From a virus, in the IMG/VR virus record IMGVR_UViG_3300033064_003457, positions 1-64,000 of that record: a stretch of 64,000 nucleotides of DNA. One strand, given 5' to 3'. The notes beneath the pieces were generated by a model. It was not told the DNA's origin, did not search any database, and was given only the letters and a program-made list of their open reading frames with translations. The number at the start of each line of letters is the position of its first letter. The first letter of the stretch is position 1. Position numbers and translations under genes: made by a program. This document shows positions 3,101 through 17,713 of the stretch, in pieces.

Positions 3101-3883
3101 TCCTTCAAATATATATAGTGGTGTTGGGTTTTTAAGTGCAACGTTAAGACCATACAAAATGTTGCTCTTGTTATAAATGGGACACTTAGAGCTAGTATTG
3201 ATAAACTTTAGCTTTTTAGATGTCTTATCGTGAGACATATCCCTTCCAGAAAACCCTACAACCCTGCCCTTCTCGTCAGATATAGAGAATATTAACATTC
3301 TCTCATTGAAAATTGATCTATTTAAATCTATATCTCCTACAAACTTAGCATCAAATCCCCTATGCTCCATCCTAGATAGGAACTCGCTATGGCTACGCAC
3401 AGTACCTATTTTTAGCTCTCTACATAGCGTTACAGGCCATTTCCTGCTACTTATGTACTCTAGGGGTTGATACTCTGATATGATATCTGCTGCCACAGAA
3501 TAAGCACTATGCACTCTTCTAGTGTACATTTCCTCCGGAGTAGCTTCTATGGTGTCATAGTCTATACCGTACTTGTTAGCCAAATATAGAACGTTTCCTT
3601 CTATGAACCCTTCCCCACTTAGTGGTTTTGACTCAAGGAAGTTGGCAGCATCAAATATGTCTGACCCTGCACCACAGGAAAAACAGAAGAACTTTTGTTC
3701 TTTTGTACCCTTAATGAAACTACAATTTCCTAGACGGCGATCATTGTGGTCGGGATGTATGCATAAAAATCCACCACTTCCGTCTATATCTATGTTTCTT
3801 TCCTCAAGATACCTTCTTAGGAAGGGCCTTATCTTAGCCATGAGATCATCTAAATTAGTAATCTTATCTACCATCAGATGCAC
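152..3883 (-). CDS. Fused DnaG-type primase / DnaB-type (SF4) helicase containing an intein
   Basis: N-terminal Zn-binding motif (CIHPDH...CFSC), TOPRIM motifs (FEGYPD, DGDEPG), Walker A GDSNTGK/T split by an intein, FFLDNFH (Walker B-like), and DnaB-like C-terminal motifs RPMLQDISESKQMEYD and IQKNK. Confidence 0.93.
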   Translation of the reverse strand: MHLMVDKITNLDDLMAKIRPFLRRYLEERNIDIDGSGGFLCIHPDHNDRRLGNCSFIKGTKEQKFFCFSCGAGSDIFDAANFLESKPLSGEGFIEGNVLYLANKYGIDYDTIEATPEEMYTRRVHSAYSVAADIISEYQPLEYISSRKWPVTLCRELKIGTVRSHSEFLSRMEHRGFDAKFVGDIDLNRSIFNERMLIFSISDEKGRVVGFSGRDMSHDKTSKKLKFINTSSKCPIYNKSNILYGLNVALKNPTPLYIFEGYPDFVTAYKYGMTNICAIGGTALTRDHIRLLRGLGISDCILALDGDEPGQLRTQKLLDDYFRGDETIRIRVLKLPNDNSDPDDYINAYGVDNFNKLSLLTPFQWRLSRFDYESKPEDVCDKLIPLILNDPNEIHRELMARELSESTGIRLKTIVRQIDKLINIEDARKDNQIQLRLKQVADDIKYTPDNPTYILEAAADDIRQLQSLAGEDIHASNEVLSSIDIIKDEFSSRKPGLQGWKTGFENLDTVLSGIPKQDTMITFAGDSNTGKCKKFDTPVLLSDGTYKTIEYICKNKLTNIMTMDNHRIVKSKASDWVDSGKLRCYKVKTASGLVDESSETHPYYTINGWKMVKDLTVGDKIAVPKRYDIEGVDSISKEESLLLGLFLSDGSITKAAGFSNTDKELLGLFKSLVRKVFNGIPSFRYDKNTLYASYSGQKVNPALDFLRQYGLLGRNSHNKFVPDEIFSGTNDIISSFIGAFYACDGWFYNNGKRVELGLSLCNYNLIKQIHSLLLRLGIKTKISSGKVKLNGKCFDRFTISIGDYNNILKFNQKINLPLKYKSNAIKKYLNKNKCYDNKRYSYKNYFPKELWSVIKDKCSDKKIPMNMLLDNVCNDTEYYDKSRNKKRTKKYNVSFNNNINPNLLKKIAEYLDDNFLESICDGDISFDEITDVQGIGIHQCYDLVVNRTNNFIANDIVVHNTGFMLSLALNLSKHNDNIMTLFMSIDDSRQQAMTRLVAIESGLKIKQITHPSQNISNDEDRKKLVQGWDAVRRLVEQNKFSLKDNSHGNTLDFAEGWIRWAKDNYPNKEIVFFLDNFHKLGDERQKDERIRFKHASARIHSMKNKLHFTAICTMEIRKLMGGAKNQRPMLQDISESKQMEYDNNLIGMIYNDLHASRDKASTIWTDTVGGEPVRRPVLEIDIQKNKISEYKDILYYKFVPERSIFFECGEDEIREWKKDYSAAIKQVQDKRHPEAGGNPFLKV
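1004..2290 (-). mobile_element. Intein (429 aa) with LAGLIDADG homing endonuclease, inserted in helicase Walker A
   Basis: Begins CKKFDTPVLLSDG after GK and ends NNFIANDIVVHN before T. Block B SETHPYY and LAGLIDADG-like motifs LLGLFLSDGS and FIGAFYACDG are present. Removal restores GDSNTGKT. Confidence 0.93.
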
Positions 3884-4258: not shown

Positions 4259-5113
4259 ATGGAGTTAATCAAAGCCGTAGACAAGTACCTCGAGAACCCT
4301 CACCTAAAAAGACAAGCAAGAAAAAGAACCGGATGGTATCCATCCCAGGCATCATGTACAGTGACCAATGAATACAATGAAAACGTTGTAGTTGGTGGCT
4401 GTTTAAGAGCCATGTATTGGCAGAGCAAAGGTGTATCAAGGACAAACCCCATGACTGCTAGAGGATACAGGATAACAAGTATCGGCAAAAAAGTAGAAGA
4501 GATAGAAGTGCTAAGATACAAAGAAATGGGAATATGGCGTGGTAACAATATAAAGTTTTTTAATGATAAATATAAAATATCTGGTGAGGCCGATGCTATA
4601 ATTTATGACAAAGTACTCGATGGTGACATCGGAGTAGAAATAAAAACAGGTTATGGTTATAAATTTCAGAAAGAAGTCTTTGGGTCAACATATAGAAAGG
4701 GCAAACCAAAGATAGAACATCTTATGCAAGTTATGCTATATATTGATTATTTTAAACTTTTGTTTAAGATGGTTTATGTAGACAGGGGTAACGCTCAGAG
4801 AGGAGAGTTTGATGTTACACTAAACTCTGATGGAACACCAAACGTAGATGGAAAAAAACTTACTAATGGACTATCATTGCCTGGCATAATACACAGGTTT
4901 GATACTGTAGCTAAATGTCTGGAAGATGGTGTTCTCCCTGAAAGAGATTACCAATTAAAATATAACAAAGATAGATTACAATTTTTATGTGATTCTAATA
5001 GATTGAATAAGAAAGAGAAGGAAGAGTTTTTGAAGAATAAAAATGTTGATTCTGGTGACTGGCAGTGTGCTTATTGTGATTATAAAGATTATTGTTGGAA
5101 GGAGAATAAATGA
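4259..5113 (+). CDS. Cas4-like / RecB-family PD-(D/E)xK exonuclease with a probable Fe-S cluster
   Basis: Motifs GCLRAMYW, ISGEADAI, VEIKT and QVMLY, plus C-terminal CAYCDYKDYC (1+3 Cys arrangement). Confidence 0.8.
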   Translation: MELIKAVDKYLENPHLKRQARKRTGWYPSQASCTVTNEYNENVVVGGCLRAMYWQSKGVSRTNPMTARGYRITSIGKKVEEIEVLRYKEMGIWRGNNIKFFNDKYKISGEADAIIYDKVLDGDIGVEIKTGYGYKFQKEVFGSTYRKGKPKIEHLMQVMLYIDYFKLLFKMVYVDRGNAQRGEFDVTLNSDGTPNVDGKKLTNGLSLPGIIHRFDTVAKCLEDGVLPERDYQLKYNKDRLQFLCDSNRLNKKEKEEFLKNKNVDSGDWQCAYCDYKDYCWKENK

Positions 5114-5711: not shown

Positions 5712-6050
5712 CTAAAAATTATCCCTTAATGATTTTTTAATATTAGCTATGTCTTCTTGTAGAGTTTCTATGCTACTCTCATCTGTGTCTAGGCTGGTAG
5801 ACAGTGATTGCAATGTAGTGTTGATAGCCCCTTGCTGGCTATTGATATTAGAGTCTAAACCACACCTAGTCATCTTAGAGTTTATTTTAGACATTCTGTC
5901 AAACACATCTGTAACACCTTGAGATGATGGAAAAGATTTTGTGCCAACGTACTGTACCCCGCTTATTCCATAGAGCGACCCTTCTTCTACTGTGTCTGGG
6001 CTTGGTAGTGTTATGTCACCTAAGTTTGTGCTTATTATTATTACTGCCAT
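5712..6050 (-). CDS. Short paralog of the C-terminus of the 788-aa fibre protein
   Basis: EGSLYGISGVQYVG...SSQGVT...LDSNINS...IETLQEDIANI aligns with EGILYGVSGVQYVG...SSQSVT...LDSRISS...IKQLQLDIADI. Confidence 0.7.
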   Translation of the reverse strand: MAVIIISTNLGDITLPSPDTVEEGSLYGISGVQYVGTKSFPSSQGVTDVFDRMSKINSKMTRCGLDSNINSQQGAINTTLQSLSTSLDTDESSIETLQEDIANIKKSLRDNF

Positions 6051-8416
6051 TAGCTTAACCCCCTAACCTCATCGATAATATCTGCTATATCTAGTTGAAG
6101 CTGTTTTATTTCTTCATCGATAGAATCCAAGTCTACTGCCATTCCACCCAATGTATCGTTGATAGATGTTTGTAAACTCGATATTCTTGAATCCAAAGCA
6201 AGCAAAGAAAAATCTGCGCTTAAATCAGTTAAGGTATTATATAGATTGGTTACGCTTTGTGACGAAGAATAGTCTAGCGATCCTACATACTGGACACCAC
6301 TAACACCATACAGTATGCCTTCCGATACGTTAGTTTGGCCTGGTACAACAAAATTACCTGTTTCTGTATCAAAATTAAAAGACACATTGTCTATTACATC
6401 ATTTATTGATGGATAGTCGCAAGAAGCTGAGTATGTGCCGGTAAATTCTGTACCATCAGCGCCGTAGGATGTCCCAATCTTTACGTTTGCCTCTCCAGGT
6501 TCGGTAAAATTTCCAGTATACTCACTACCGTTGCCATAGGTAACACCGCTCTGCACATCATCTTCAGACGGCGAAGTAAACGTGCCAGAATATGTTCCAC
6601 TAGCGAATGTTATGCCGTCCTGGACATCACCAGCACTAGGGTAGTCCGCATCAAACGCACCAGTAAACTCGCTTGCGTTACCATATGTTTCCCCTGATTT
6701 AACCGATGCCTCGTCTGGTACTACAAAGGTTCCGTTAAGCTCAATGCTCCCAGAGCCATAAGCCACCCCATATTCTACGTCACCGACTGACGCTGGCGAC
6801 AACTCTCCAACCCTACTTTCCTCACTGAAAACAGTTCCTTCCCTAACGTCGCCAGAATAAGGATAGAGCCCATCTATCCCTGCACATATTGTAGGAAAAC
6901 CTCCTTCCCACATGCAAAAATTTCCTCCACAAGTGTCCTTTCCAACAACAGATAGGTCTTCCATGTATACATACCCTGTTGTCCCTCTAGCCTCAACCCA
7001 TAGCTCAGCAGCTCCAGATTGTGATATGTTGTAGGATGGTACAGATACTGAAAACTCTTCATAGTCAGTAGAGGCATCTATGGCACTATAACTACAGGCT
7101 GGATTTCCAAGAAAGTATACAATAGCCCTAATATCACCATTAAAATCAGCTGTTTTTTTAATATAAAATTTTACTTCTAATGAAGTACCATTTACTACCT
7201 GTATTGGCAGCTTCATTCTTATGTATTCTGAGGCGCTTGTTGGCTCAAATCTAGCCGATTGCCCACTCCTAGATTCATCTCCAGTGTAATGACGCAATAT
7301 TCCATGCCTATACAGGGCCATGTCGTTTCCCGCAGTATTAACGCCTTGACAAGTAATAAGCGGGTCTGGTGAATTATGTGAAGAGTAAAATGTAACATTA
7401 GGGTCGCCACCAGCTGATGTTGTGATACCCTCTATTACCAAGCAAGACAATGACCGATAATAAATATCTATATCACAGTTTACCATAGTTATATTTTGTA
7501 AGTACGGCAATGTTCCAGCTACGTATATTGGCGTAGGCGATCTCATTATCGTTGCGTTAACAGCTCTGTTTGATCCACAATCATAGGCGGTACTTATAGC
7601 AATTGAATCAGTAAAGCTATTCATTGTATCAATCACAACATTACCAGTTGACCGATATAGCCTTATTCCGCTATCGTTGAGGTAGCACTGTGAAGTTTCA
7701 TAGTTTGATATTGTGATGTCTGTTACGGTGTCACAGTAAAAGTTAGAATCACCGCTAGCCAGTGAAGAAATATTAGTAAAGCTACTTCCAGTTGCAGTCC
7801 TGAAATATATCCCATTCAAATATCTGCAAAAACCAATATCTCGTAAGTGGATATAACTATCTCCACCAGTATACATTTGTATGCCATAACCATACTTGTT
7901 TGCACCGCTCTGGAAAAACCATGTCTCACCATCCTGCGCTTCGTTTGTTAGGTTCCATCCCCCAGAAATAACCAATAGGCTTTGTAGCGATGTCCCGTCG
8001 CTTGCTGGCTGCTGTACTATTTCAGCTCCAGTGGCGGCAGTCCCTGTATCAGTAACGCCAAGTTTATAGGCTGAGGTTGTCTCACTGGTTCCAGCGTATA
8101 TAGCCGCTAACGTTATTGTGTCTGATGTTATCGATTCTATTTCCCACCACGTCTCTGAGCTAATGTTTTTACCCACAAAATCCTTAGAAGATAGGACTCC
8201 AGTGAGATCTTGTGCTGTAGTTATTGATGTAGTACCGTCAGTAAATGTGAGATTGCCAGATAGCAGGGTGTGAGCTGGGCTCTTGGCGCACCTAACTTCA
8301 TCGCCACCAGCAAGACCAGTGGATGCCTTATATATGTTTTTATATGGGTTACCAGCAGATCCGTCTCCTGTGTCATCGTTGCCAGAGGTAAAATCGCAGT
8401 AATTGATTGTGGCCAT
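6050..8416 (-). CDS. Putative tail fibre/spike or surface protein with a beta-helix-like region, internal repeats and a C-terminal coiled coil
   Basis: N-terminal GNDDTGDGSAGNPYKNI motif typical of beta-helix proteins; S/T/G/N-rich; about 8 repeats of P-x3-(D/N)V-x2-G-x2-(Y/F)G...(F/Y)TG. Confidence 0.6.
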   Translation of the reverse strand: MATINYCDFTSGNDDTGDGSAGNPYKNIYKASTGLAGGDEVRCAKSPAHTLLSGNLTFTDGTTSITTAQDLTGVLSSKDFVGKNISSETWWEIESITSDTITLAAIYAGTSETTSAYKLGVTDTGTAATGAEIVQQPASDGTSLQSLLVISGGWNLTNEAQDGETWFFQSGANKYGYGIQMYTGGDSYIHLRDIGFCRYLNGIYFRTATGSSFTNISSLASGDSNFYCDTVTDITISNYETSQCYLNDSGIRLYRSTGNVVIDTMNSFTDSIAISTAYDCGSNRAVNATIMRSPTPIYVAGTLPYLQNITMVNCDIDIYYRSLSCLVIEGITTSAGGDPNVTFYSSHNSPDPLITCQGVNTAGNDMALYRHGILRHYTGDESRSGQSARFEPTSASEYIRMKLPIQVVNGTSLEVKFYIKKTADFNGDIRAIVYFLGNPACSYSAIDASTDYEEFSVSVPSYNISQSGAAELWVEARGTTGYVYMEDLSVVGKDTCGGNFCMWEGGFPTICAGIDGLYPYSGDVREGTVFSEESRVGELSPASVGDVEYGVAYGSGSIELNGTFVVPDEASVKSGETYGNASEFTGAFDADYPSAGDVQDGITFASGTYSGTFTSPSEDDVQSGVTYGNGSEYTGNFTEPGEANVKIGTSYGADGTEFTGTYSASCDYPSINDVIDNVSFNFDTETGNFVVPGQTNVSEGILYGVSGVQYVGSLDYSSSQSVTNLYNTLTDLSADFSLLALDSRISSLQTSINDTLGGMAVDLDSIDEEIKQLQLDIADIIDEVRGLS

Positions 8417-8432
8417 TAATGTCTCCCGCTAT

Positions 8433-9635
8433 TTATGTTGTGGTAGTATAAGTTAATGTTATAGAATCAAACAAAGGGCTACTAGAGTCTCCTGTCTCCT
8501 GGGCTATCTCAATCATCACCCAGATACTATCTGTAGCATAGGTAGTTATCTCCAGCTGACTATCTACTGTTATCGGAGAGTTAGAAGACGTCCACACTGG
8601 TGTGTCTGAATCAAAATCATCTTGAGAGATGTATAAATATGCTTTATATTTTATGTTATCGTACCCAGGATCTGTTCTCAACGATGTTATTTTTGATAAC
8701 AATCCTGTCTCGTAGCTTGGTAATGTAAACTTAACACCTATCTTGCCACTTGGTTTATATTCAACCTTTTCTATCCCTATCTCCTGAGCCCCATAGACAA
8801 ATGTTTTATAATCTTCTTCTAGCTCATTGTTGCGTTGTCTAAGATAGAATCGCATTTTTGTTGGCTGAATATTGTTAAAAGAATACATCTTGCTTCTTAT
8901 GTTGTTTTCTCCATCGACAGGAAATGTTGGTAGTATGTTATCTTGAGAGGTTAGGGTATCATACTCAACATCAGTTACATCTATAGTCCCGTCGGGGTAT
9001 GGCTTAAAAAATACCTTGTTGACATATGGGTTACTCATAGATGGTAATGTTAATTCTAACTCACAGGATATTGAGTCCTTGACATGGTCTCTATTAAATC
9101 TTACCTTTCTTTCCCACACTGACTCATCTGTTCCATCAAAAGCATTAAGTACGCTAAGCTCTTCCACCTTAACGTTTCCATCTTCATCGCTAGGAGTAAC
9201 ATCTACAGATAGGTCTGGCATCCTATATATCTTTCCATCAGATATGCCTATCGTGTATACTTTTGAAAAACTATTACTAACAGGAAGGGTTACTATGCCA
9301 AACTGAGTGTCTACAACACATTTTTCCCCGTCAGGGAGATCCTCTGGATAGGTTGTATCCTTCGTTAGATAGAAGTCCTCATGGAACATCTTGTACCCCG
9401 ACGCAGCCCTATCATAAGCGGACACAAGACCGCTGACAGCATATAGCCTAGAGCTTATTGCTCCAGTATCATGCCTTATCCGTGACTCTATGTTATTTAA
9501 ATCTACAACTAGTGAAGATATATCGGCGAAAGCAGTATTTAAATCGTATAAAATCTGCTCAAAATTCGTGTTCATATCCGCCGAAGAAGTATTACCTCTC
9601 CATGTTGATTTAATCGGCGTAAATGTTGGCGGCAT
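8433..9635 (-). CDS. Virion structural protein, paralog of the 17.7-24.6 kb proteins
   Basis: N-terminal SSADMNTNFEQILYDL and C-terminal SPLFDSITLTY motifs are shared with the paralogs; SD AGGAGG. Confidence 0.6.
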   Translation of the reverse strand: MPPTFTPIKSTWRGNTSSADMNTNFEQILYDLNTAFADISSLVVDLNNIESRIRHDTGAISSRLYAVSGLVSAYDRAASGYKMFHEDFYLTKDTTYPEDLPDGEKCVVDTQFGIVTLPVSNSFSKVYTIGISDGKIYRMPDLSVDVTPSDEDGNVKVEELSVLNAFDGTDESVWERKVRFNRDHVKDSISCELELTLPSMSNPYVNKVFFKPYPDGTIDVTDVEYDTLTSQDNILPTFPVDGENNIRSKMYSFNNIQPTKMRFYLRQRNNELEEDYKTFVYGAQEIGIEKVEYKPSGKIGVKFTLPSYETGLLSKITSLRTDPGYDNIKYKAYLYISQDDFDSDTPVWTSSNSPITVDSQLEITTYATDSIWVMIEIAQETGDSSSPLFDSITLTYTTTT

Positions 9636-9646
9636 TCTTATCCCTC

Positions 9647-10564
9647 CTATTTATAAAGACACTTCCTGTTTTTATATATATGTTTTTGTGCATAATATGT
9701 TTTCCAGCACATCCCAGGGCAAGTGTTTTGTTTTTCACAATCGTTACATCCATACCAATCTAGTACCTGTTGGTATCCATAATCAAGATACTCTAAATCG
9801 TTACACAATCTATCCCATTCCTTATCTTCTATCCAAGATGGCTTCCTAGTAAATCCAGCACATGTAAAAACGCCCCTTGATGTTATCGCTTTTAAATGAT
9901 TAGATACACATCTTACTGCTGGAAAATCAGATTTTAATTTAATGTTTTTATAGGAGAAAGAAAATCCGTCCATCATAACCGGTTCTTCCCAATCTATAGC
10001 TGCATACTTACTTAATTTCTTTATGTACGGAACGTAGTCATCCTTGCTAGTCATCAATATTCCTATGCGAAGGATATTGTCAAGTCTTTCTAAATTTTCC
10101 CAGTATCTCTTTTCTTTTTCTCTAGTTTTTATTCTCTCGGTGCTAAATGGAACTAAAATATTTACATTAAATTTCTTGCTTAATATTTTAGCAAAATCTA
10201 CACCACTCTTGCTTATGTTCTCTAGTGACAGTGGAATATCGAAGCACCCCCTATCTCCTATAAATTTGTGTACTATTGAGAACAGATTTGTTAGCTTTCT
10301 TCTGTACACTGGGTCAACAACTAGCTGATCCATAAAAAGCTCACCACCAAATATTCTTACTATTATATGTGAACTATCATAGTCGTATTTTGACAATGTG
10401 CTAATTACATTATTGTAGAGCTTTCCCCAATCTCTGTCGCCAACTACACTCTTGTTAAGGAAACAAAACTTGCATCCGCCAGTGCATAGAGATGTTGGTA
10501 CTATACTTATTTCTCTCCATGGATGATTTCTTCGACGCTCCATTATGCTACATGTTTGTGTCAT
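9647..10564 (-). CDS. Radical SAM enzyme with a SPASM-like C-terminus (rSAM-D)
   Basis: CTGGCKFC (CxxxCxxC), FGGELF, C-terminal CNDCEKQNTCPGMC. Confidence 0.85.
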   Translation of the reverse strand: MTQTCSIMERRRNHPWREISIVPTSLCTGGCKFCFLNKSVVGDRDWGKLYNNVISTLSKYDYDSSHIIVRIFGGELFMDQLVVDPVYRRKLTNLFSIVHKFIGDRGCFDIPLSLENISKSGVDFAKILSKKFNVNILVPFSTERIKTREKEKRYWENLERLDNILRIGILMTSKDDYVPYIKKLSKYAAIDWEEPVMMDGFSFSYKNIKLKSDFPAVRCVSNHLKAITSRGVFTCAGFTRKPSWIEDKEWDRLCNDLEYLDYGYQQVLDWYGCNDCEKQNTCPGMCWKTYYAQKHIYKNRKCLYK

Positions 10565-11648
10565 TTAAAACTCCATAGTTGCTATGCACCCATTCAACAA
10601 ATCTTTTGGCACCTATACATTCATCGCTATCATCATACTCATCCTTGTATACCTCGGATAAGCATCTACCGGCATAATCACAGACAAGACAATCTGCTCG
10701 GTTATTAACTAGGCGTTGCTTGTACAGAAACGACTTTCTTTTATCTGAATTTACTATATCCTCAAAAGAAGACTTGTCGCTCAATCTTCCAAACTCTTGG
10801 AGGTACTCTTCCTTGTCACTATTATATCCCATATACAAAAATCTCATTCCTCCATCGATGAACACAACCTCGCCACCAAGAGCAGTTCCTATGTCATTTC
10901 GATGCGCTACATCATATATCATTCCACTTTTTTCTTTATGGCCACGCTTAATGATTTCCTCGTGTACTGCTATGGAAAAATCAGAGAACTCAGACATGTT
11001 AGTTGCGTATTTATTCCACAGATGCCGTTGTCCTTTGATTGGTATAAACTGCTTTAGGCTAAAGCCAGCCAGGCAACCAAGATTCTCTAGAACATCAACA
11101 TAATTTTGTGGACCCAACTCTAGCATTGTCTTGTTAACCACAGACATAACACAGACTCTTACTCCTGCCATGCGTAGTTCTTTAACATTCCTAAATAACT
11201 TTTTGTTGTATTCTTCTCCGCGCATTAATCCATCATAGCTGACAGCTGACAATTCTTCTCCATTACTCTTTTCTGACATATATTTTAATAGAGATATCCA
11301 ACCGTCATTCATTTTTTGCAATGACGTATATATATCAAAGACAGCGTTGCTATAGAATTCTTCTATGTTTGTTAGCATAGACCTTATGTACTCTGGAGAT
11401 AATGTTTGTGGCTCAGCTCCATACAGAGTGAACTTAATCCTGTTCCATTTTGACCTATAATCTTTCATTGATTCCAAAAGATTTCTAAGATCAGATATAG
11501 ACATGTCTGAAGACTTATCCTCCTTAGACATAGCCTTAAGATAACAAGATGGGCAATTATTAAAGCATCTGTATGTTATCCATAGGTGGGGATTAAAGTA
11601 TCCTGTTTCTATGCTTAGTATCGGTTGAGACGTAGCCATGTCTATCAC
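10548..11648 (-). CDS. Radical SAM enzyme with a partial SPASM-like C-terminus (rSAM-C)
   Basis: CFNNCPSC, variant YGAEP motif, C-terminal CLVCDYAGRC...EC. Confidence 0.85.
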   Translation of the reverse strand: MIDMATSQPILSIETGYFNPHLWITYRCFNNCPSCYLKAMSKEDKSSDMSISDLRNLLESMKDYRSKWNRIKFTLYGAEPQTLSPEYIRSMLTNIEEFYSNAVFDIYTSLQKMNDGWISLLKYMSEKSNGEELSAVSYDGLMRGEEYNKKLFRNVKELRMAGVRVCVMSVVNKTMLELGPQNYVDVLENLGCLAGFSLKQFIPIKGQRHLWNKYATNMSEFSDFSIAVHEEIIKRGHKEKSGMIYDVAHRNDIGTALGGEVVFIDGGMRFLYMGYNSDKEEYLQEFGRLSDKSSFEDIVNSDKRKSFLYKQRLVNNRADCLVCDYAGRCLSEVYKDEYDDSDECIGAKRFVEWVHSNYGVLNDTNM

Positions 11649-12739
11649 GAGCAGTACCCCTCGTCTCGTATATAGTTTTTTATGTAATTAGAAAAACTAT
11701 CGTTATGTTGAATGTGGTGAGATATAACAGAAAAAAAACTTTTACTCTCATAGCATTCCTTACTCTGACAGCACCCGCCATTGCAAGCTGGGAAGAATTC
11801 ACACTCCATGCATTCCTTTCTTTGGAATCTTTCTCTTATGGCCATGTCTCTTCTTTTGGTAGAATTAGCAAAATCACTGAAGTTATCATCAAGTGTGCAT
11901 ATTGGATTATCTTTACTAGTATTGGGGCAGGTGCCAACAGTCCCATCAGAGTTTATTGTCATAACAGTCAACATACAATCGCGACCAGAACAACCGATAT
12001 ATCTCCCATCAAAAAAAGATTTTGCTTTACGTACAATCTCATTCTTAGGAAACTTTGTATACAAATTACTTTCTATCAAGTAGTTAGCAAATTCTGCTTT
12101 CCATTCACCGTAGCGCTTGGTGTCTATTGCTATTTTATTCCAGTTTTTATCGGCCAGTCCATTCCTTGTTACCGGTTCAAAATGAAAACCATATATATTA
12201 TTATCGACAAGAAAATGTATTAAATCTTTAGGCTCATTCTCTCTGATATAATCGTTCGATAATGTTATAACTAAATACACATCTAACCCATCTTTCTTAC
12301 ATTTTTTTATATTTTCTAACCAGACCTTTTCATGGCGCTTGTCTTTGTTAACAAATCTAATTCCAGGAGAGTATGATGTTCCAACTTGACCATTTAATCT
12401 TTTCTTTATAAAATTAACCAATGGAGTATTGTACATCAATAGATTAGTCTGTATAGAAAAATCCATGTCCAAGAACGGTAGCGATGATTTTATAGTCTTA
12501 TATATGTTTTCTAGTTTTTTTACTCCTAGCAATGTTGGCTCTCCGCCATGGAACACAACATCTATAAACATACCCTGCCTATTCTTATCTATGTATTGTC
12601 CCATGGATGCCAAGAATGGACTTAATCTTTCTTCTTCCAATACAGAGCTTGTGTCCCCCGATGCATTATAACAATGCAAACACTTAAGATTGCACTGCTC
12701 AGTTGGTTTTATGTATAGTGTCATCCTATTTTTTAACAT
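11645..12739 (-). CDS. Radical SAM/SPASM enzyme, peptide/protein maturase-like (rSAM-B)
   Basis: KPTEQCNLKCLHCY, FHGGEPTL, SIQTNL, and SPASM CSGRDC...DGTVGTC...CMECEFFPACNGGC. Confidence 0.92.
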   Translation of the reverse strand: MLKNRMTLYIKPTEQCNLKCLHCYNASGDTSSVLEEERLSPFLASMGQYIDKNRQGMFIDVVFHGGEPTLLGVKKLENIYKTIKSSLPFLDMDFSIQTNLLMYNTPLVNFIKKRLNGQVGTSYSPGIRFVNKDKRHEKVWLENIKKCKKDGLDVYLVITLSNDYIRENEPKDLIHFLVDNNIYGFHFEPVTRNGLADKNWNKIAIDTKRYGEWKAEFANYLIESNLYTKFPKNEIVRKAKSFFDGRYIGCSGRDCMLTVMTINSDGTVGTCPNTSKDNPICTLDDNFSDFANSTKRRDMAIRERFQRKECMECEFFPACNGGCCQSKECYESKSFFSVISHHIQHNDSFSNYIKNYIRDEGYCS

Positions 12740-13643
12740 ATGATATCCCCTTTAATTTTGAAAAGAACCGCTTTGCAGATTCACAATAATTTGTATCATC
12801 ATAGGATTCAACCATCCAGTTACGTATTGTACATCCCCTACACAGATTAAAGTGATCGCATATAAAACACTTCTTTGGTATATCATATTTTAAGTCTTTT
12901 CTCTCTTTTCTCATGTCACCCATTACTGGACATGGGTACGAAGAAAAGTCTGTCTCTATATTAACCATTACATCATCATTGATACATGTTTTTATGTATG
13001 GGCAGATATCGTTTCCACCTTTTAGTGAGTTAAGTATATTTGTAAACGGCTGTATTTCATGGAACCCACTCTCTATCCATGCATCTATCAATCTAGTATA
13101 TATATCAAACACATCTGAAACTTTCAATATTCTTTCTTTGTGCCTGGCGGCTAGGCCAGATGGAACAATATAGTTTATCTTTAGTGGAAAATCCTTTGCT
13201 ATAGAGCTACTTACCCATTCTTCTGCTTTAAGCAAAGATACGTTCTTGTTGGTATCTAATACTATTAGGACAGGCGGTGAGTACCCAACCACTTCCCTAA
13301 CCATCTCGTATGCAGTAAAAAAATCAGCCACGATATCAAACTTGTCACCACTGACTGACAGTCCCTGGAAATTTTTATGTGTTAGCACGCAATCCCACGA
13401 AGAGTCATATAGCATGATGTTTGACTGCAAAGAAAACTTAAGCCCCTTATCCAGTAGTTCTGAGTAATATTCAGGAGGTAGCATCATTGGCTCTCCCCCA
13501 ATAAGAAGAACATTTTCTGACTTATATGTATCGTACAGTCTTACTATATCTCTCTGCTCTATGTATCCGTCTCCACTAGTAGAACAAAACCAACATTTAT
13601 TATTACAATTTAATACATTTTTAATAACTAAAAATTTATTCAC
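12726..13643 (-). CDS. Radical SAM/SPASM enzyme (rSAM-A)
   Basis: CNNKCWFC, GGEPMM, LQSN, and SPASM CPYIKTC...YPC...CFICDHFNLCRGC...YC. Confidence 0.9.
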   Translation of the reverse strand: MNKFLVIKNVLNCNNKCWFCSTSGDGYIEQRDIVRLYDTYKSENVLLIGGEPMMLPPEYYSELLDKGLKFSLQSNIMLYDSSWDCVLTHKNFQGLSVSGDKFDIVADFFTAYEMVREVVGYSPPVLIVLDTNKNVSLLKAEEWVSSSIAKDFPLKINYIVPSGLAARHKERILKVSDVFDIYTRLIDAWIESGFHEIQPFTNILNSLKGGNDICPYIKTCINDDVMVNIETDFSSYPCPVMGDMRKERKDLKYDIPKKCFICDHFNLCRGCTIRNWMVESYDDTNYCESAKRFFSKLKGISYVKK

Positions 13644-14598
13644 TTCTTACCTCTATAGGGAAAAGATCCCGCTTGCTTTTGCAGTTGCTTGTTATTACAT
13701 AATTGCCATCCTTTAATACGCTTAATATATCGCTATCCGACATCCCATCGATACTGTCAATGTGCACTGGCTGTTTTTCATTGTTATTAATGTATCTTTC
13801 TGTAAGTAATGAATAGTCTACTGTAGGAGCCAAAGCATTTATTACCATACCCTTAAATATTGATATAGCATAGTCAAATTTCTTGTCTGTAGGATATGCT
13901 CTATATGGATTGTACTTCATGTCTCTCATCACAAAAGCTAACGGAACATACAGCCCTGATTTAATTCTATATTGGCAATCTTCTATCTTGCTATTATTGT
14001 TGCCAGAATGATAGTCGTATGCCACATCAAAAAGATACTTACAGTGGTGCTTAAAATCATCCACGAATTGCCTATTGGTATCTATCATGTGCAGTAGCAT
14101 CCACTTGGACCATTCGTTGATAAATTCAAAAGTATACTTATCTTTTATGTAAGTATAATATATGAATTTGTTTAGCACAGTACTTACTATTTCATCCCAC
14201 TTATCAAATATGTCTATATCATAAAAATGTCTCATGTACAAAGCATATAGTGATACTAGAACTATTATTTTTGCCGGATAAACTATCTTCTTCATATCTG
14301 TATCTATGTAACTTACAAGCAATTCTTCCATTTGACTGTCTGTGACATTCTTTATTAATATATTAATATTAATATTATTTGACAGATTTATAATATGTCT
14401 TCCTGACAGGTCAAGGCTTTCGAACTCAGCAAACGTTGTATTTAGTGCATTGCTGTTAGTCATCTCTAGCTCCAAGAGCTTCTCAAATATCTTATAGTCT
14501 ATTGGATAATCTAGCTTTATTATGTAATCTGTGGCGTCGTTGTAGTGATTCATTAAATACGATATCTTGTCTATATATTTTACCTTACTTTTTACCAT
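13636..14598 (-). CDS. Hypothetical protein (320 aa) in the rSAM cassette
   Basis: Overlaps both neighbours; no motif recognised. Confidence 0.7.
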   Translation of the reverse strand: MVKSKVKYIDKISYLMNHYNDATDYIIKLDYPIDYKIFEKLLELEMTNSNALNTTFAEFESLDLSGRHIINLSNNININILIKNVTDSQMEELLVSYIDTDMKKIVYPAKIIVLVSLYALYMRHFYDIDIFDKWDEIVSTVLNKFIYYTYIKDKYTFEFINEWSKWMLLHMIDTNRQFVDDFKHHCKYLFDVAYDYHSGNNNSKIEDCQYRIKSGLYVPLAFVMRDMKYNPYRAYPTDKKFDYAISIFKGMVINALAPTVDYSLLTERYINNNEKQPVHIDSIDGMSDSDILSVLKDGNYVITSNCKSKRDLFPIEVRSE

Positions 14599-14854
14599 TT
14601 ATAACTATACCCCCATCAACCATATCAAACCCTAAGCTATCAATTTTTCTAGACAAACTGTCAGGTATCTCTGAGTTTATTTGTATCTTAATACTATTAG
14701 CTATACACTCAACATCAAAACTAATATTATCGCTCTTTAGCAATTGTACTAGAAATGTTATCTTTACTATCTGGCTATTAGTAAAGCTATCATAGCTGTT
14801 ATCAATACAATCAAAAAGCTTATTTTCTAATTCATAAATTTTCAATGACATCAA
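14585..14854 (-). CDS. Hypothetical protein (89 aa) in the rSAM cassette
   Basis: Overlaps both neighbours; SD-like GGGAGA upstream. Confidence 0.6.
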   Translation of the reverse strand: MMSLKIYELENKLFDCIDNSYDSFTNSQIVKITFLVQLLKSDNISFDVECIANSIKIQINSEIPDSLSRKIDSLGFDMVDGGIVINGKK

Positions 14855-15281
14855 TTATCTCCCGTTGATAGTAAAATAATTCAACAGTCTCATCTGTTGA
14901 CTTTCTTTCTTTCCTTATAACGTCACCACACTCTATTACGTTTTCACCATATTTTTTAATCTCAGATTTATAGTCTTCAAGATTAGATACTATGGTAATA
15001 TTGTAATCCCTAATACTTATCGGCTTAAGCCTTACAAGACTCCTTAGGGTATATTCATCGCCGTCTTTGCTATGGATAAAAGGCATTGAGTAAAATAGAG
15101 ATTCTACTAAAACAAGAAGTAGTCTGGCCCTTGACCCACTGTTTAGATACTGGTGGGTAATGACCTCTTTTAACTTAGGTATAAATTCATCATCTACGTA
15201 TGCTGCGTTAGCAGGACAATACTCAGTCCAGGTGTCTATTGTTGGTATCTTATTGTTAGGCCAAAGTAAAATTAGTCTCAT
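14832..15281 (-). CDS. Hypothetical protein (about 149 aa) in the rSAM cassette
   Basis: Start reassigned to the ATG at 15281 (MRLILLW), giving an ATGA overlap with the upstream stop and a GAGG SD. Confidence 0.65.
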   Translation of the reverse strand: MRLILLWPNNKIPTIDTWTEYCPANAAYVDDEFIPKLKEVITHQYLNSGSRARLLLVLVESLFYSMPFIHSKDGDEYTLRSLVRLKPISIRDYNITIVSNLEDYKSEIKKYGENVIECGDVIRKERKSTDETVELFYYQREIIDVIENL

Positions 15282-16201
15282 CGTATGGGCCTCGCTTCTT
15301 CTGGTGCTTTTCCTAAAGGATAATAGCTTAAAACAAATAACTGCATTTCGTCTACAGGTATATGTGGTCTTGATGGTACGAACACAAGAAAGTTCCCATC
15401 TATCCCTCTGCTTATCCATCTAGAGAAAACATCCTTTTTTAATCTAACTAATATGCTGTCAGTTTTTTCTGTATAGAATAATCCAGTTAAACTGTCCAAG
15501 ACCTGTAATATGGCTCTTGGTTTATAATATTTTTTGAAATTATTTTTAATCTTAACGTAATAATCTCTGCCCATTGGTCTATAGTAAACAGATCCTTCCT
15601 TGATCACGAATGAACATATCATGGAATTAAAGTTTACACACATATTTAGTCCATGGTCATTATGCATTTTTATCAGTTCTTTTTCTCCATCCTTATCGTG
15701 AGCTAGTACTACATGAAGAGCCGTCCTATTTATCTTAAGCTGGTCTATTGGTATTTCTGTCCTCATATATGTATGGTCTACTGGTGCGGCATATTTATCT
15801 GCCTTTTGTGCGTAGTGAAAAAATCCATGCTGGAGTATCTGCATCGGTAAATTGCAATAAAATAATGACAAATTTTCCTTTGTAAACGTAGATAACTTAA
15901 ATGGCTCTTCCCACGAAGATAAACTTGGACCGCTTATTCCATCATCCCTAACCTCTAGTAGCCTATCCCATCCATCTTTATACCATTGCCAACAAACCTG
16001 GAACCAGTTGGCGAACATATCAAAGTACTCGAAATTTCTTGGTGTAAAGTCTAGATTAAAGTACTCTACAGCATCATCGTTTTTATCAACGTCAAAGTGA
16101 GACCATACTCCTTCATCTATTTTTTTCATGGGGACTCTATCTTTGTCACCACCGAACAATTGTGTATAGTAATCTGCTAGTTTTGTAAATTTTTCACTCA
16201 T
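15278..16201 (-). CDS. Hypothetical protein (about 307 aa) in the rSAM cassette
   Basis: Likely start is the ATG at 16201 (MSEKF), just after the previous stop; aromatic-rich, no motif recognised. Confidence 0.7.
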   Translation of the reverse strand: MSEKFTKLADYYTQLFGGDKDRVPMKKIDEGVWSHFDVDKNDDAVEYFNLDFTPRNFEYFDMFANWFQVCWQWYKDGWDRLLEVRDDGISGPSLSSWEEPFKLSTFTKENLSLFYCNLPMQILQHGFFHYAQKADKYAAPVDHTYMRTEIPIDQLKINRTALHVVLAHDKDGEKELIKMHNDHGLNMCVNFNSMICSFVIKEGSVYYRPMGRDYYVKIKNNFKKYYKPRAILQVLDSLTGLFYTEKTDSILVRLKKDVFSRWISRGIDGNFLVFVPSRPHIPVDEMQLFVLSYYPLGKAPEEARPIR

Positions 16202-16203
16202 TG

Positions 16204-16764
16204 TTATCTTTTGCCTCTCTTGCAACTAGAGTAACAGCTAGAATGACAGCTGGAATGACACTCGCTTATTACTATATATTCAGTCCCTGCACTTGGAAAA
16301 AGAGTAGTGTTGTGTATGGCACATCCATCAACTATTATTTCTAATATATCCCTAGATGGACTTAATACTATATTTTGTATCTTGCCACCTGCTACTGGTG
16401 CTGTTATGTACGCTGGAATGGCAGTGGTAAAGCTTCCATCCCTTCTGCCTTCAACATCACTAGAGACTGCTGTCCTTCCATAATTCCATTCTCCGCTGGA
16501 GAGTCTCCTTCTACAGCTATCATATTTTCTCATGAAATTATATTTTGTTACAATACCATCGCTATCAGAGAAGTGAGCTGCACGTATTGCTATGCCAGAA
16601 GTTACTGTTCTGCTAACAGTAGTTTGTGTCGACTGTAATAGAACAGACGGAGTTATAGTGCCAGTAGTAGAAGATATGTTAACATTATTACAGCTAGTAA
16701 TAAGGTTATTTAATGTTCCTCTCGCAGAATTCCAATCTGTCGCTGATACTTTTCTTACAGACAT
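16204..16764 (-). CDS. Candidate rSAM substrate: S/T-rich protein with C-terminal CHSSCHSSCYSSCKRGKR
   Basis: Strong SD GGAGG; first gene of the cassette; imperfect 12-nt tandem repeat encoding C-(H/Y)-S-S three times plus a basic tail. Confidence 0.7.
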   Translation of the reverse strand: MSVRKVSATDWNSARGTLNNLITSCNNVNISSTTGTITPSVLLQSTQTTVSRTVTSGIAIRAAHFSDSDGIVTKYNFMRKYDSCRRRLSSGEWNYGRTAVSSDVEGRRDGSFTTAIPAYITAPVAGGKIQNIVLSPSRDILEIIVDGCAIHNTTLFPSAGTEYIVISECHSSCHSSCYSSCKRGKR

Positions 16765-16779
16765 ATATTTCCTCCGTTA

Positions 16780-17079
16780 TTAGTATACAGGACCCTGTTC
16801 AGCCTCTATATATATTCTTTTCTCAAATCTTTTTTCATAATCGTATAATTGGTTACGTAGATCAAACATGCTATCGCTATACCCTGACGGCATTATGTAC
16901 CCAGAAGACAGCACTTCAAGGCTATCTCCGGTGGACGTTAGCTTATCATATGATGTCCGTAGATCAACCAATATTTCTGACAGCGTTGAGGCTATTTTGC
17001 TAGACTCTGTTTTGCCATAGTAGGCATGGTTTCTCTTTGTCGTTGTCACTATGCTATCAAAGTTATCTATAAAAGACAT
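16780..17079 (-). CDS. Small virion-associated protein (99 aa)
   Basis: YGKTESSKIASTLSEILVDL resembles the N-terminal motif of the paralog family; SD GAGG. Confidence 0.55.
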   Translation of the reverse strand: MSFIDNFDSIVTTTKRNHAYYGKTESSKIASTLSEILVDLRTSYDKLTSTGDSLEVLSSGYIMPSGYSDSMFDLRNQLYDYEKRFEKRIYIEAEQGPVY

Positions 17080-17089
17080 TCTTAACCTC

Positions 17090-17713
17090 TTATTTTGAAG
17101 AACACAATACAGTTATCGCTGTGGCCACAGATAGCGTTATGTCTAGCCTATCCATACTCTTGTGTTCTATTGTTTTCGGATAAAATACTTCTCCAGCAGA
17201 TGTGTCAAATACTTCTACCAGCGGATATACTCCAAGATTGTGATCAACCTGGAAAAAAGTGTTAGATGAGTATTCTTGCGAAAAGTAACCGCTAGAAGCT
17301 GGTTGCCATGTTCCTGATCCTACAGCGTCTGCCGTAAGCACATATCCTGGAATGGCTGTGCCTCCTAGCTGGAACTCATCAGTATATAGATATTCAAATA
17401 TTCCTGATGGAGCAAATACCCCATAGCTGAATATTCCAGAAACAGATTTTACATACTCTCCAGTAAAAATACCAGATCCGCCCATATCGTAAACACCAGA
17501 CGGCGTATATATTCCATGAGTAAATATACCAGACGCACTATATACATCGGTGAATATTCCAGATCCTATATATGCATAGTCAAAGTATCCAGATGGAGCA
17601 CTGAACGTATCGCATCCAAGGTGCCAGCATCTTACGGCCCTATCCTTCAGGTCACCATCTCGCTTTAGCATATGTTTAGAGAAATTATTTAATCTGTCTT
17701 GATACTCTGCCAC
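17090..17713 (-). CDS. Fibre-like protein with about 10-aa xSG(I/V/Y)(F/Y) repeats
   Basis: APSGYF, IGSGIF, SASGIF, TPSGVY, GGSGIF, SVSGIF, APSGIF; GYVLTADAVGSGTWQPA fibre-type motif; C-terminal VDHNLGVYPLVEV (HNLG-type small beta domain). Confidence 0.65.
   Translation of the reverse strand: MAEYQDRLNNFSKHMLKRDGDLKDRAVRCWHLGCDTFSAPSGYFDYAYIGSGIFTDVYSASGIFTHGIYTPSGVYDMGGSGIFTGEYVKSVSGIFSYGVFAPSGIFEYLYTDEFQLGGTAIPGYVLTADAVGSGTWQPASSGYFSQEYSSNTFFQVDHNLGVYPLVEVFDTSAGEVFYPKTIEHKSMDRLDITLSVATAITVLCSSK

Follow-up and report, generated by a model that had tools for sequence, protein, structure and literature searches.

Why would a phage carry four consecutive genes for radical S-adenosylmethionine (rSAM) enzymes between genes for virion proteins? 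The question is raised by IMG/VR virus record IMGVR_UViG_3300033064_003457, a 75-kb sequence with an estimated completeness of about 36%, of which the first 64 kb were analysed and are called the window here. An earlier note, made from the letters of this DNA, had described nine packed, co-directional minus-strand genes at 9647-16764 and read them as a pathway resembling those for peptides that are made on ribosomes and modified after translation (RiPPs), acting on the C-terminal end of a virion protein. All nine open reading frames (ORFs) were found at these coordinates (Table 1): a protein of 186 amino acids (aa) with a Cys/His-rich C-terminal tail is followed by ORFs of about 307, 149, 89 and 320 aa and then by four enzymes with a CX3CX2C motif. 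Comparison with other phages and with bacterial genomes makes it probable, in our judgement, that the block is a phage-encoded RiPP-like cassette which matures the tail of a virion protein. For virion proteins, maturation generally means folding and proteolysis, in some cases also glycosylation or the formation of isopeptide bonds. If this reading is true, the finishing of a particle protein by four or more dedicated rSAM enzymes would be a maturation route of a new kind.

The Cys/His tail and its enzymes in phages and Bdellovibrionota

The 186-aa protein ends in CHSSCHSSCYSSCKRGKR, as the earlier note had read it: three C-[H/Y]-S-S units, an extra Cys and then K-R-G-K-R. Written generally, the window-type tail is (C-[H/Y]-x-x)3-C-x-R-x-[K/R]-R, a pattern found in just two IMG/VR contigs, and it does not match the strict pattern (C-H-x-S)3-R-x-R-R. 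Relatives of the protein are few, six from a word search and two more from an exhaustive profile search. They have two to five terminal Cys-His-x-x units; C169, H170, C173 and H174 are invariant, and in window-type tails Tyr sometimes takes the place of His and Asp that of one Cys. No Pfam, NCBIfam (E <= 0.1) or PHROG family matched the 186-aa protein, and its AlphaFold2 model, built from an 8-row alignment, was unusable, with a predicted local distance difference test (pLDDT) value of 47. A 230-aa metagenome protein (P0009) is a distant homologue of the 186-aa body, with two Cys-His units followed by an unrelated acidic and Tyr-rich end, and may be a decayed or alternative form. Three further candidates were rejected: two giant repeat proteins (P0010 and P0011) that matched over short Ig-like stretches alone, and a locus (L006) whose DNA polymerase spuriously matched a DGIVTKY word.

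A tblastn search of cultured phages with the 186-aa protein gave no match, since its body has no relative there and low-complexity masking hides the tail; the link to cultured phages came from inspecting the neighbours of rSAM matches. With the window enzymes as queries, tblastn matches were confined to jumbo phages whose hosts are Ralstonia, Burkholderia, Agrobacterium, Sinorhizobium and Pseudomonas, at several sites each. ORF071 of phage RSF1, also 186 aa long, ends in ...CHSSCHSSCHGSRGRR, and the same terminus is present in gp170 of Atu_ph07 (296 aa), CDS 289 of Phosso (306 aa) and 00065 of pPa_SNUABM_DT01 (178 aa). In all four phages the tail gene lies directly 3' of a cupin gene and an orthologue of enzyme 2, and beyond it are found proteins without assigned function, four to six further rSAM genes and 2-oxoglutarate (2OG) oxygenases. 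Two annotations in these clusters stand out: RSF1 ORF074 (9662-10765 of locus L015), annotated as hypothetical, has a CQFSCKGC motif and a CxxCx5C C-terminus and is a fifth, unannotated rSAM gene of its cluster, and gp164 of Atu_ph07 looks like a class-C enzyme whose annotation is too short at the N-terminus.

To count such tails, IMG/VR was searched for DNA encoding CHxxCHxxCHxxRxRR followed by a stop, with the residue at His+2 left free. At least 120 contigs matched, against about 0.01 expected by chance, and they yield 143 terminal tail ORFs among the matches listed. The earlier note had asked whether a Cys/His-tailed protein keeps company with rSAM clusters elsewhere, and in other phages it does so almost obligately: same-strand rSAM-like genes were present in 113 of the 120 listed loci, the seven exceptions being short of flank 3' of the tail gene, and where both flanks of a listed locus reached 1.5 kb or more, an rSAM gene stood alongside the tail in 52 of 53 (median distance below 20 nt). 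Profiles of four enzyme classes, A to D, matched in 88 (A), 38 (B), 26 (C) and 63 (D) of the 120 listed loci, class A being the usual neighbour of the tail gene. A helper family, f073, follows the tail gene in 94 of them and a cupin is encoded in 63. Within the tails, the unconstrained position His+2 is nevertheless a Ser in 80-88% of cases. Among the listed loci the bodies that bear the tail form at least 10 clusters without detectable similarity. Besides the arrangements above, there is a third layout, in which a gene for a giant fibre-like protein precedes two tandem genes for tail proteins (about 127 aa each) and then five rSAM genes; tandem genes of this kind, directly behind a giant fibre-like gene whose product can reach about 2100 aa, were seen in L019, L057, L077, L081, L091, L093, L096, L106, L116 and others. 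Tail-fibre-like genes lie upstream of the cassette in every architecture examined, and in none of these architectures was a protease, transporter or immunity gene found in or beside the block.

A search with the same pattern across prokaryotes, each species represented by one genome, yielded 47 stretches, of which about 38 are true terminal tail ORFs. Bdellovibrionota account for 27 of the 47, megabase contigs among them. Two Bdellovibrionota regions contain classes A-D, f073 and a further family, f085 (with a cupin in one of them, G001), flanked by housekeeping genes (serine dehydratase, penicillin-binding protein, helicase). Their cassettes adjoin a Peptidase_S74 fibre protein (L188 9765-10991, minus strand) or a 2355-aa RCC1/Big_2 surface-type protein (L190 9866-16933, minus strand). 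The Peptidase_S74 domain is an intramolecular chaperone domain. Prey recognition by Bdellovibrio uses phage-fibre-like chimeric proteins (PMC10769870). That the cassette adjoins genes for fibres or adhesins in phages as well as in predators points to a function in entry or at the cell surface. The stretches from other groups are mostly contigs of 220-250 kb from metagenome-assembled genomes (MAGs) and may be mis-binned jumbo phages; tail and rSAM loci on contigs of 45-250 kb that were binned as Bacilli, Flavobacteriaceae, an unclassified 'bacterium' and a Methanobacteriota MAG (L174, L179, L182 and L187) probably belong to large phages placed in the wrong bin.

Judged from these comparisons, the four enzyme classes that recur beside the tail on unrelated N-terminal domains form a widespread, previously undescribed system. 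It spans no fewer than 120 viral contigs, several cultured jumbo phages that infect Gram-negative hosts of plant-associated or clinical origin (RSF1/RSL2, FLC6/8, SURPRISE13, Atu_ph07, Phosso and pPa_SNUABM_DT01) and 27 Bdellovibrionota genomes. Our literature search found no paper describing the tail together with the rSAM genes and none with the motif string. Phage papers class these rSAM genes as accessory or of unknown function, and a comparative survey of jumbo phages does not mention radical SAM (PMC7824862).

The window tail appears to share its design with at least 184 proteins of phages and Bdellovibrionota that end in (C-H-x-S)3-RGRR, and the window cassette can be regarded as a rare, divergent subtype of the larger system in a different phage lineage. 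The subtype is marked by the fourth Cys, the K/R ending, the His-to-Tyr and Cys-to-Asp changes, the lack of cupin and oxygenase genes, and accessory genes of its own. No window ORF could be linked to a cupin or to f085 by Pfam, PHROG or hhalign. The whole block recurs in the same order in IMG/VR contig L005 at 45-59% identity; the flanks of L005 are unlike those of the window, yet they encode a baseplate hub, a wedge and tail-collar fibres. A cassette gene directly follows the window-type tail gene in all seven further loci (L005 and six short metagenome contigs); in the six short contigs this gene belongs to the 307-aa family in three and to the 320-aa family in three, and the genes upstream of the tail gene are baseplate-J-like and fibre-like. 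The natural variation of this subtype narrows down which tail residues matter.

The four enzymes and known maturation systems

The earlier note had described the last four genes of the block as consecutive CX3CX2C enzymes, and this was confirmed: all four have the motif near the N-terminus, a GGE/GAE motif and a Cys-rich C-terminus. The cluster motifs (Table 1) and GGEP, GAEP or GGE are invariant in an alignment with the L005 orthologues. Enzyme 2 is the clearest member, scoring above cut-off for both Pfam Radical_SAM (PF04055; 35.1 bits, gathering cut-off 29.5) and the SPASM model TIGR04085 (33.4 bits, cut-off 27). Enzymes 1 and 3 reach 26.8 and 25.5 bits with Radical_SAM, slightly short of the cut-off, and enzyme 1 also matches phrog_1802 (2e-13). 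Enzyme 4 has no Pfam Radical_SAM match and its L005 orthologue, 58% identical, scores 15.6 bits; it was assigned by its CX3CX2C and GGE motifs, by phrog_1802 (4e-6) and by an independent class-D profile, its best class. A C-terminal Cys array of CX2CX5CX3C type marks the SPASM/twitch domain (TIGR04085, PF13186). SPASM-like Cys arrays that match no model are present in enzymes 1 and 4 (CxxCx5CxxC/CxxxC) and in enzyme 3 (CxxCx5C plus one Cys).

The class A-D profiles were built without window-type sequences, and each window enzyme tops a different one: enzyme 2 class A (219.8 bits), enzyme 1 class B (77.9 bits), enzyme 3 class C (63.7 bits, a marginal assignment with class A at 62.3 bits) and enzyme 4 class D (36.3 bits). 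Identity to the RSF1 proteins is 31% for enzyme 2 (ORF070) and 25% for enzyme 1 (ORF079). That the enzymes are peptide or protein maturases, as the earlier note proposed, agrees with their best scores, which were with rSAM/SPASM maturase models (DynA, TIGR04083, anSME, cyclophane, ranthipeptide). The top named model of enzyme 2 was DynA (NF041298), at 119.3 bits (1.7e-34) against a cut-off of 450, followed by TIGR04083, the anaerobic sulfatase-maturating enzyme (anSME), YhhB and PapB, and its closest solved structure was the cyclophane-type maturase ChlB. A grouping with cofactor or nucleotide families was not seen: QueE and MoaA are absent among the hits shown, and the NrdG-type activase models, the sole ones of such families there, score far lower. 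A PADLOC scan gave just weak viperin-type rSAM matches. A role in DNA hypermodification, for which rSAM enzymes are known in thymidine pathways (PMC8989533), was rejected: kinase, transferase and pyridoxal phosphate (PLP) genes are lacking and the enzymes match peptide-maturase models.

Among known systems the closest analogue, as far as the sequences tell, is the HXS anti-phage defence system (Li et al., Nat Commun 2026); by score the cassette belongs to none of the HXS, DynA, anSME and triceptide families. In HXS the HxS-repeat protein HxsA is matured by the rSAM enzymes HxsB and HxsC, with HxsD, giving +8 Da on S-H-R-S-S, where His and the distal Ser are essential (PMC13128918). Both systems have a whole protein with tandem basic His-x-Ser units and several rSAM genes with a small or uncharacterised helper alongside. 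The resemblance of S-H-R-S-S to the C-[H-x-S] units followed by RGRR in the phage tails is one of motif only. HXS is encoded in a defence island with two enzymes, whereas the present genes belong to phages or predatory bacteria and comprise four classes. Moreover, an invariant Cys stands between the units, the tail is at the extreme C-terminus, a peptidoglycan-binding domain and evidence of a signal or of processing are lacking, and the presumed destination is the virion and not the periplasm. The best scores with HxsB (TIGR03978, cut-off 370) were 43.5 bits and 33.6 bits, the latter for enzyme 3, and with HxsC (TIGR03977, cut-off 267.9) 12.1 bits; the NCBIfam models of HxsA and HxsD had no match at E <= 0.1 to the 186-aa protein or the accessory ORFs. 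The likeness to HXS raises the possibility of an arms-race relationship.

The chemistry of DynA includes a link from His-N to Tyr-C-beta across an H-x-Y unit (PMC10288494), and the triceptide maturases (YhhB, FxsB, GrrM/OscB, AmcB) join an aromatic ring to the C-beta of residue i+2, which would fit the conserved [H/Y]-x-S. However, the scores with these families are far below the cut-offs (119 versus 450, 66 versus 445 and 48 versus 370 bits), and their known substrates are short leader-core peptides, none with an interleaved invariant Cys. Two further systems, anSME, which forms formylglycine in sulfatases, and QhpD, which forms thioethers in the gamma subunit of quinohemoprotein amine dehydrogenase (QHNDH), resemble the cassette as minimal rSAM/SPASM enzymes without a RiPP recognition element (RRE) that act on Cys or Ser of a folded partner. 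The anSME model is among the top ones for enzymes 2 and 3, and the anSME structure 4k36 is among the weak fold matches of the 320-aa helper. On the other hand, the anSME scores (TIGR03942, cut-off 349) are 74.0, 44.7 (enzyme 3) and 18.8 bits, the sulfatase motif C/S-x-P/A-x-R is absent from the tail, and both systems use one enzyme each, not four. Phages with several clustered rSAM genes of unassigned role have been described before, namely Campylobacter phages CP220 and CPt10 with 11-12 rSAM genes, one module having five genes (PMC2853527); tblastn with the window enzymes gave no sequence link to them, and no tail-bearing protein is reported there.

Destination of the tail protein and competing explanations

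The earlier note had placed the tailed protein in the virion, and this holds for a protein with the same tail, while the window's own protein is a presumed virion component. In purified Atu_ph07 particles analysed by electrospray ionisation tandem mass spectrometry, gp170 was identified at 31.89 kDa from 8 unique peptides covering 35% of the protein (PMC6102473, Table S5). The tail-bearing ORF of Atu_ph07 has a computed mass of 31,894 Da, the same as gp170 in that table, and the masses of gp176 and gp177 agree as well; therefore the gp numbering used here is right. The neighbouring gp164-169, gp171 and gp172 (enzymes, cupin, helpers) are not listed among the virion proteins (PMC6102473, Table S5), and gp170 heads one of three structural gene clusters of the phage (PMC6102473). 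In the gel, gp170 was detected in slices 1-9 with its peak in top slice 1, whereas the usual peak for 30-34 kDa proteins is in slices 7-8; proteins of 117-137 kDa peak in slice 1 (gp20) or slice 2 (gp132 and gp181), and the samples had been boiled in sodium dodecyl sulphate (SDS) (PMC6102473). This hints at an SDS- and heat-stable high-mass form of gp170, in slice data which are noisy, a 98-kDa protein peaking in slice 13 (PMC6102473).

We propose the following course of events. The 186-aa protein would be synthesised with its body folded and its C-terminal tail exposed, the tail consisting of Cys-(His/Tyr)-x-x units and a basic R-x-[K/R]-R end. In the infected cell four non-redundant rSAM enzymes (A-D, of SPASM/twitch type), assisted by the 320-aa protein, would covalently modify the tail by means of 5'-deoxyadenosyl radicals. 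The likeliest products would be side-chain cross-links at His/Tyr and the residue two positions on (H-x-S), at Cys thiols, or at both. The matured whole protein, not a cleaved peptide, would then enter the virion periphery, in the baseplate or fibre region, and the enzymes would be left behind. The tail as substrate, the chemistry and the order of steps are all inferred, and the rigid or metal-binding tip suggested in the earlier note is a conjecture. The most economical reading of the comparisons is that the tail is the substrate, because it is the sole element common to otherwise unrelated proteins, because the same four enzyme classes always accompany it, because its unit number varies as in an iteratively processed repeat, and because the protein ends up in the particle and the enzymes do not. 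The His/Tyr and Cys/Asp variation of the window type fits an aromatic or acceptor role, and it fits metal ligation too.

Several points count against this proposal. The arguments for modification of the tail are all genomic, and Cys/His repeats are also classic metal ligands, with which an unmodified metal-binding tail would be possible. Three of the four window enzymes are under the Pfam Radical_SAM cut-off, and the class of enzyme 3 is marginal. The 186-aa body is unrelated to gp170, and virion residence would be carried over to it through the shared tail and the gene position; RSF1 ORF071 is annotated as hypothetical and not as a virion protein. With no cupin or 2OG-oxygenase genes and with a differing tail, the window type may not share one chemistry with the main type.

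If the tail were an unmodified metal- or Fe-S-binding motif, it could be a Zn or Fe knuckle that nucleates an oligomeric tip of the fibre, or it could carry a cluster or electrons for the enzymes; the rSAM enzymes would then act on some other target, for instance a glycan, a small molecule or a fibre protein encoded nearby. Every residue type found at the two conserved positions (Cys, His, Tyr and Asp) can ligate metal, a spacing of i/i+4 would align these residues on one face of a helix, and the cupins and 2OG oxygenases of the main type suit small-molecule chemistry too. We nevertheless consider this unlikely: a unit number that varies from two to five suits an iterative repeat better than a defined metal site, the conserved Ser at His+2 is not at a ligand-type position, no glycosyltransferase or sugar gene was found within the block by Pfam, NCBIfam and PHROG searches, and the presence of the tail protein, but not of the enzymes, in the virion speaks against a carrier or electron donor. 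Another explanation, to which we give little credence, takes the tail as an attachment tag that the enzymes couple covalently to another virion protein, fixing diverse adaptor domains on fibres or baseplate, in place of an internal ring system. Such a tag would explain why at least 10 unrelated bodies share the tail, as with sorting or attachment signals, and why a 31.9-kDa gp170 peaks with proteins of 117-137 kDa despite boiling in SDS; but the slice assignments are noisy, and fibre oligomers commonly withstand SDS without being covalently joined. We also know of no rSAM enzyme that forms protein-protein cross-links.

A conventional RiPP or effector pathway, in which the 165-aa body would be a long leader and the modified C-terminal peptide or protein would be released against the host or competitors, is in our view very improbable. 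In its favour, the enzymes belong to RiPP maturase families, HxsA undergoes processing and export, and the L005 block has a class I methyltransferase that could be a tailoring enzyme. Against these stand the lack of protease, transporter and immunity genes described above, which for the proteases and transporters of the block itself bears out the earlier note (Pfam, NCBIfam and PHROG searches of the window ORFs), the conserved bodies of folded-domain size, the extent of gp170 covered by virion peptides, and the position of the genes within late structural operons. Returning to maturation of an intact virion protein, we would add with considerable doubt that the finished tail may be a 'warhead' shared by phage particles and invasive predators, that is, a small cross-linked basic module on lineage-specific adaptors near the fibres which acts at the Gram-negative envelope or in DNA entry. 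Such a module might, for instance, attach to an envelope component, accompany the ejected DNA, or mirror or oppose HxsA as the gatekeeper of the host. Virion organelles finished by enzymes in this way would form a new class.

Accessory genes and phage context

Table 1. Coordinates of the cassette genes and their immediate neighbours in the window
Feature	Position	Strand	Remarks
Tail-bearing protein, 186 aa; presumed substrate and virion component	16204..16764	-	body of about 165 aa and C-terminal tail
18-residue tail CHSSCHSSCYSSCKRGKR	16207..16260	-	encoded by an imperfect 12-nt repeat
Accessory protein, about 307 aa, function unassigned	15278..16201	-	most likely start at M9 of a 315-aa ORF
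Accessory protein, 149 aa	14832..15281	-	start at M47 of a 195-aa ORF
Accessory protein, 89 aa	14585..14854	-	36% identity to a 107-aa ORF of L005; weak phrog_30658 match
Core helper protein, 320 aa	13636..14598	-	directly after the tail gene in the minimal layout
Radical SAM enzyme 1, class B, 305 aa	12726..13643	-	CNNKCWFC; 8 C-terminal Cys
Radical SAM/SPASM enzyme 2, class A, 364 aa	11645..12739	-	CNLKCLHC
Radical SAM enzyme 3, class C, 366 aa	10548..11648	-	CFNNCPSC; GAEP; CxxCx5C C-terminus
Radical SAM-like enzyme 4, class D (weak), 305 aa	9647..10564	-	CTGGCKFC; 8 C-terminal Cys
Upstream context: 99-aa ORF and 207-aa fibre-like protein	16780..17713	-	16780-17079 and 17090-17713
Downstream context: 400-aa virion structural protein and 788-aa fibre/spike-like repeat protein	6050..9635	-

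The gene junctions within the block range from a 23-nt overlap to a 2-nt gap, and the gaps to the flanking genes are 15 nt and 11 nt. Scans for promoters and terminators found sites no more frequently than in shuffled sequence. From these tight junctions and the lack of excess promoter- or terminator-like sites, we infer that the block is part of a late structural transcription unit.

No Pfam, NCBIfam or informative PHROG family was found for the four ORFs between the tail gene and the enzymes. The order of genes in the short contigs suggests that the 307-, 149- and 89-aa genes are optional and that the 320-aa gene is core; in locus L012 the tail gene is followed by the 320-aa family and then by enzyme 1. 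The 307-aa family is present in the window, L005, L007, L008 and L011 and absent in L009, L010 and L012. Its ORF in the window, predicted at 315 aa, most likely starts at M9, and the ESM Atlas model of this protein was poor and gave no usable matches. The start of the 195-aa ORF was corrected to M47 since the L005 orthologue aligns from residue 47, at 52% identity. Between the L005 homologues of the 149-aa and 89-aa genes lies an extra gene for a class I SAM methyltransferase (11943-12581, plus strand; PF05175, 39.6 bits), which is not found in the window and may provide an added tailoring step.

The 320-aa helper gave an AlphaFold2 model with a pLDDT of 87, for which a Foldseek search of the PDB found nothing at E <= 0.001. 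Its N-terminal half is weakly like rSAM/TIM barrels (VIA-align, ChlB Z 5.8 and CteB Z 5.6), at Z values of 5-6 that lie below the level separating real from generic matches, and an hhalign comparison between the 320-aa family and eight rSAM sequences gave a negative result; a degenerate fifth rSAM protein is thus a lead only. The family is probably a divergent member of the f073 helpers, in view of its like position after the tail gene and a weak profile link (hhalign probability 63%, E = 7e-5, over 72 columns including an LSG..L.LSN.N motif). A scan of cellular genomes with the 320-aa profile found no relative, and the predicted complex of the helper with the 186-aa protein scored 0.02.

Almost all genes of the window are on the minus strand. 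The record encodes a gp6-like baseplate wedge, a tail sheath and several PHROG families of virion structural proteins, and the nearest cultured relatives of the phage are jumbo myoviruses like Bacillus phage 0305phi8-36. Both flanks of the cassette are fibre- or virion-like. The 400-aa protein downstream (8433-9635) matches the virion structural family phrog_19670 (E = 2e-26); the relatedness between it and the gene at 16780, which the earlier note had assumed, found no support (BLASTP E = 0.06). The 207-aa protein upstream has repeated SGIF/PSG motifs, and the 788-aa protein downstream (6050-8416) has about eight 'G.TYG..SE.TG.F' repeats followed by a C-terminal coiled coil; both are fibre-like without an assigned family. 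Further along, the window encodes a 1243-aa primase/DnaB-helicase fusion (152-3883, minus strand) and a Cas4-like exonuclease (4259-5113; phrog_1706, E = 1e-17), the latter being the sole sizeable plus-strand gene of the region.

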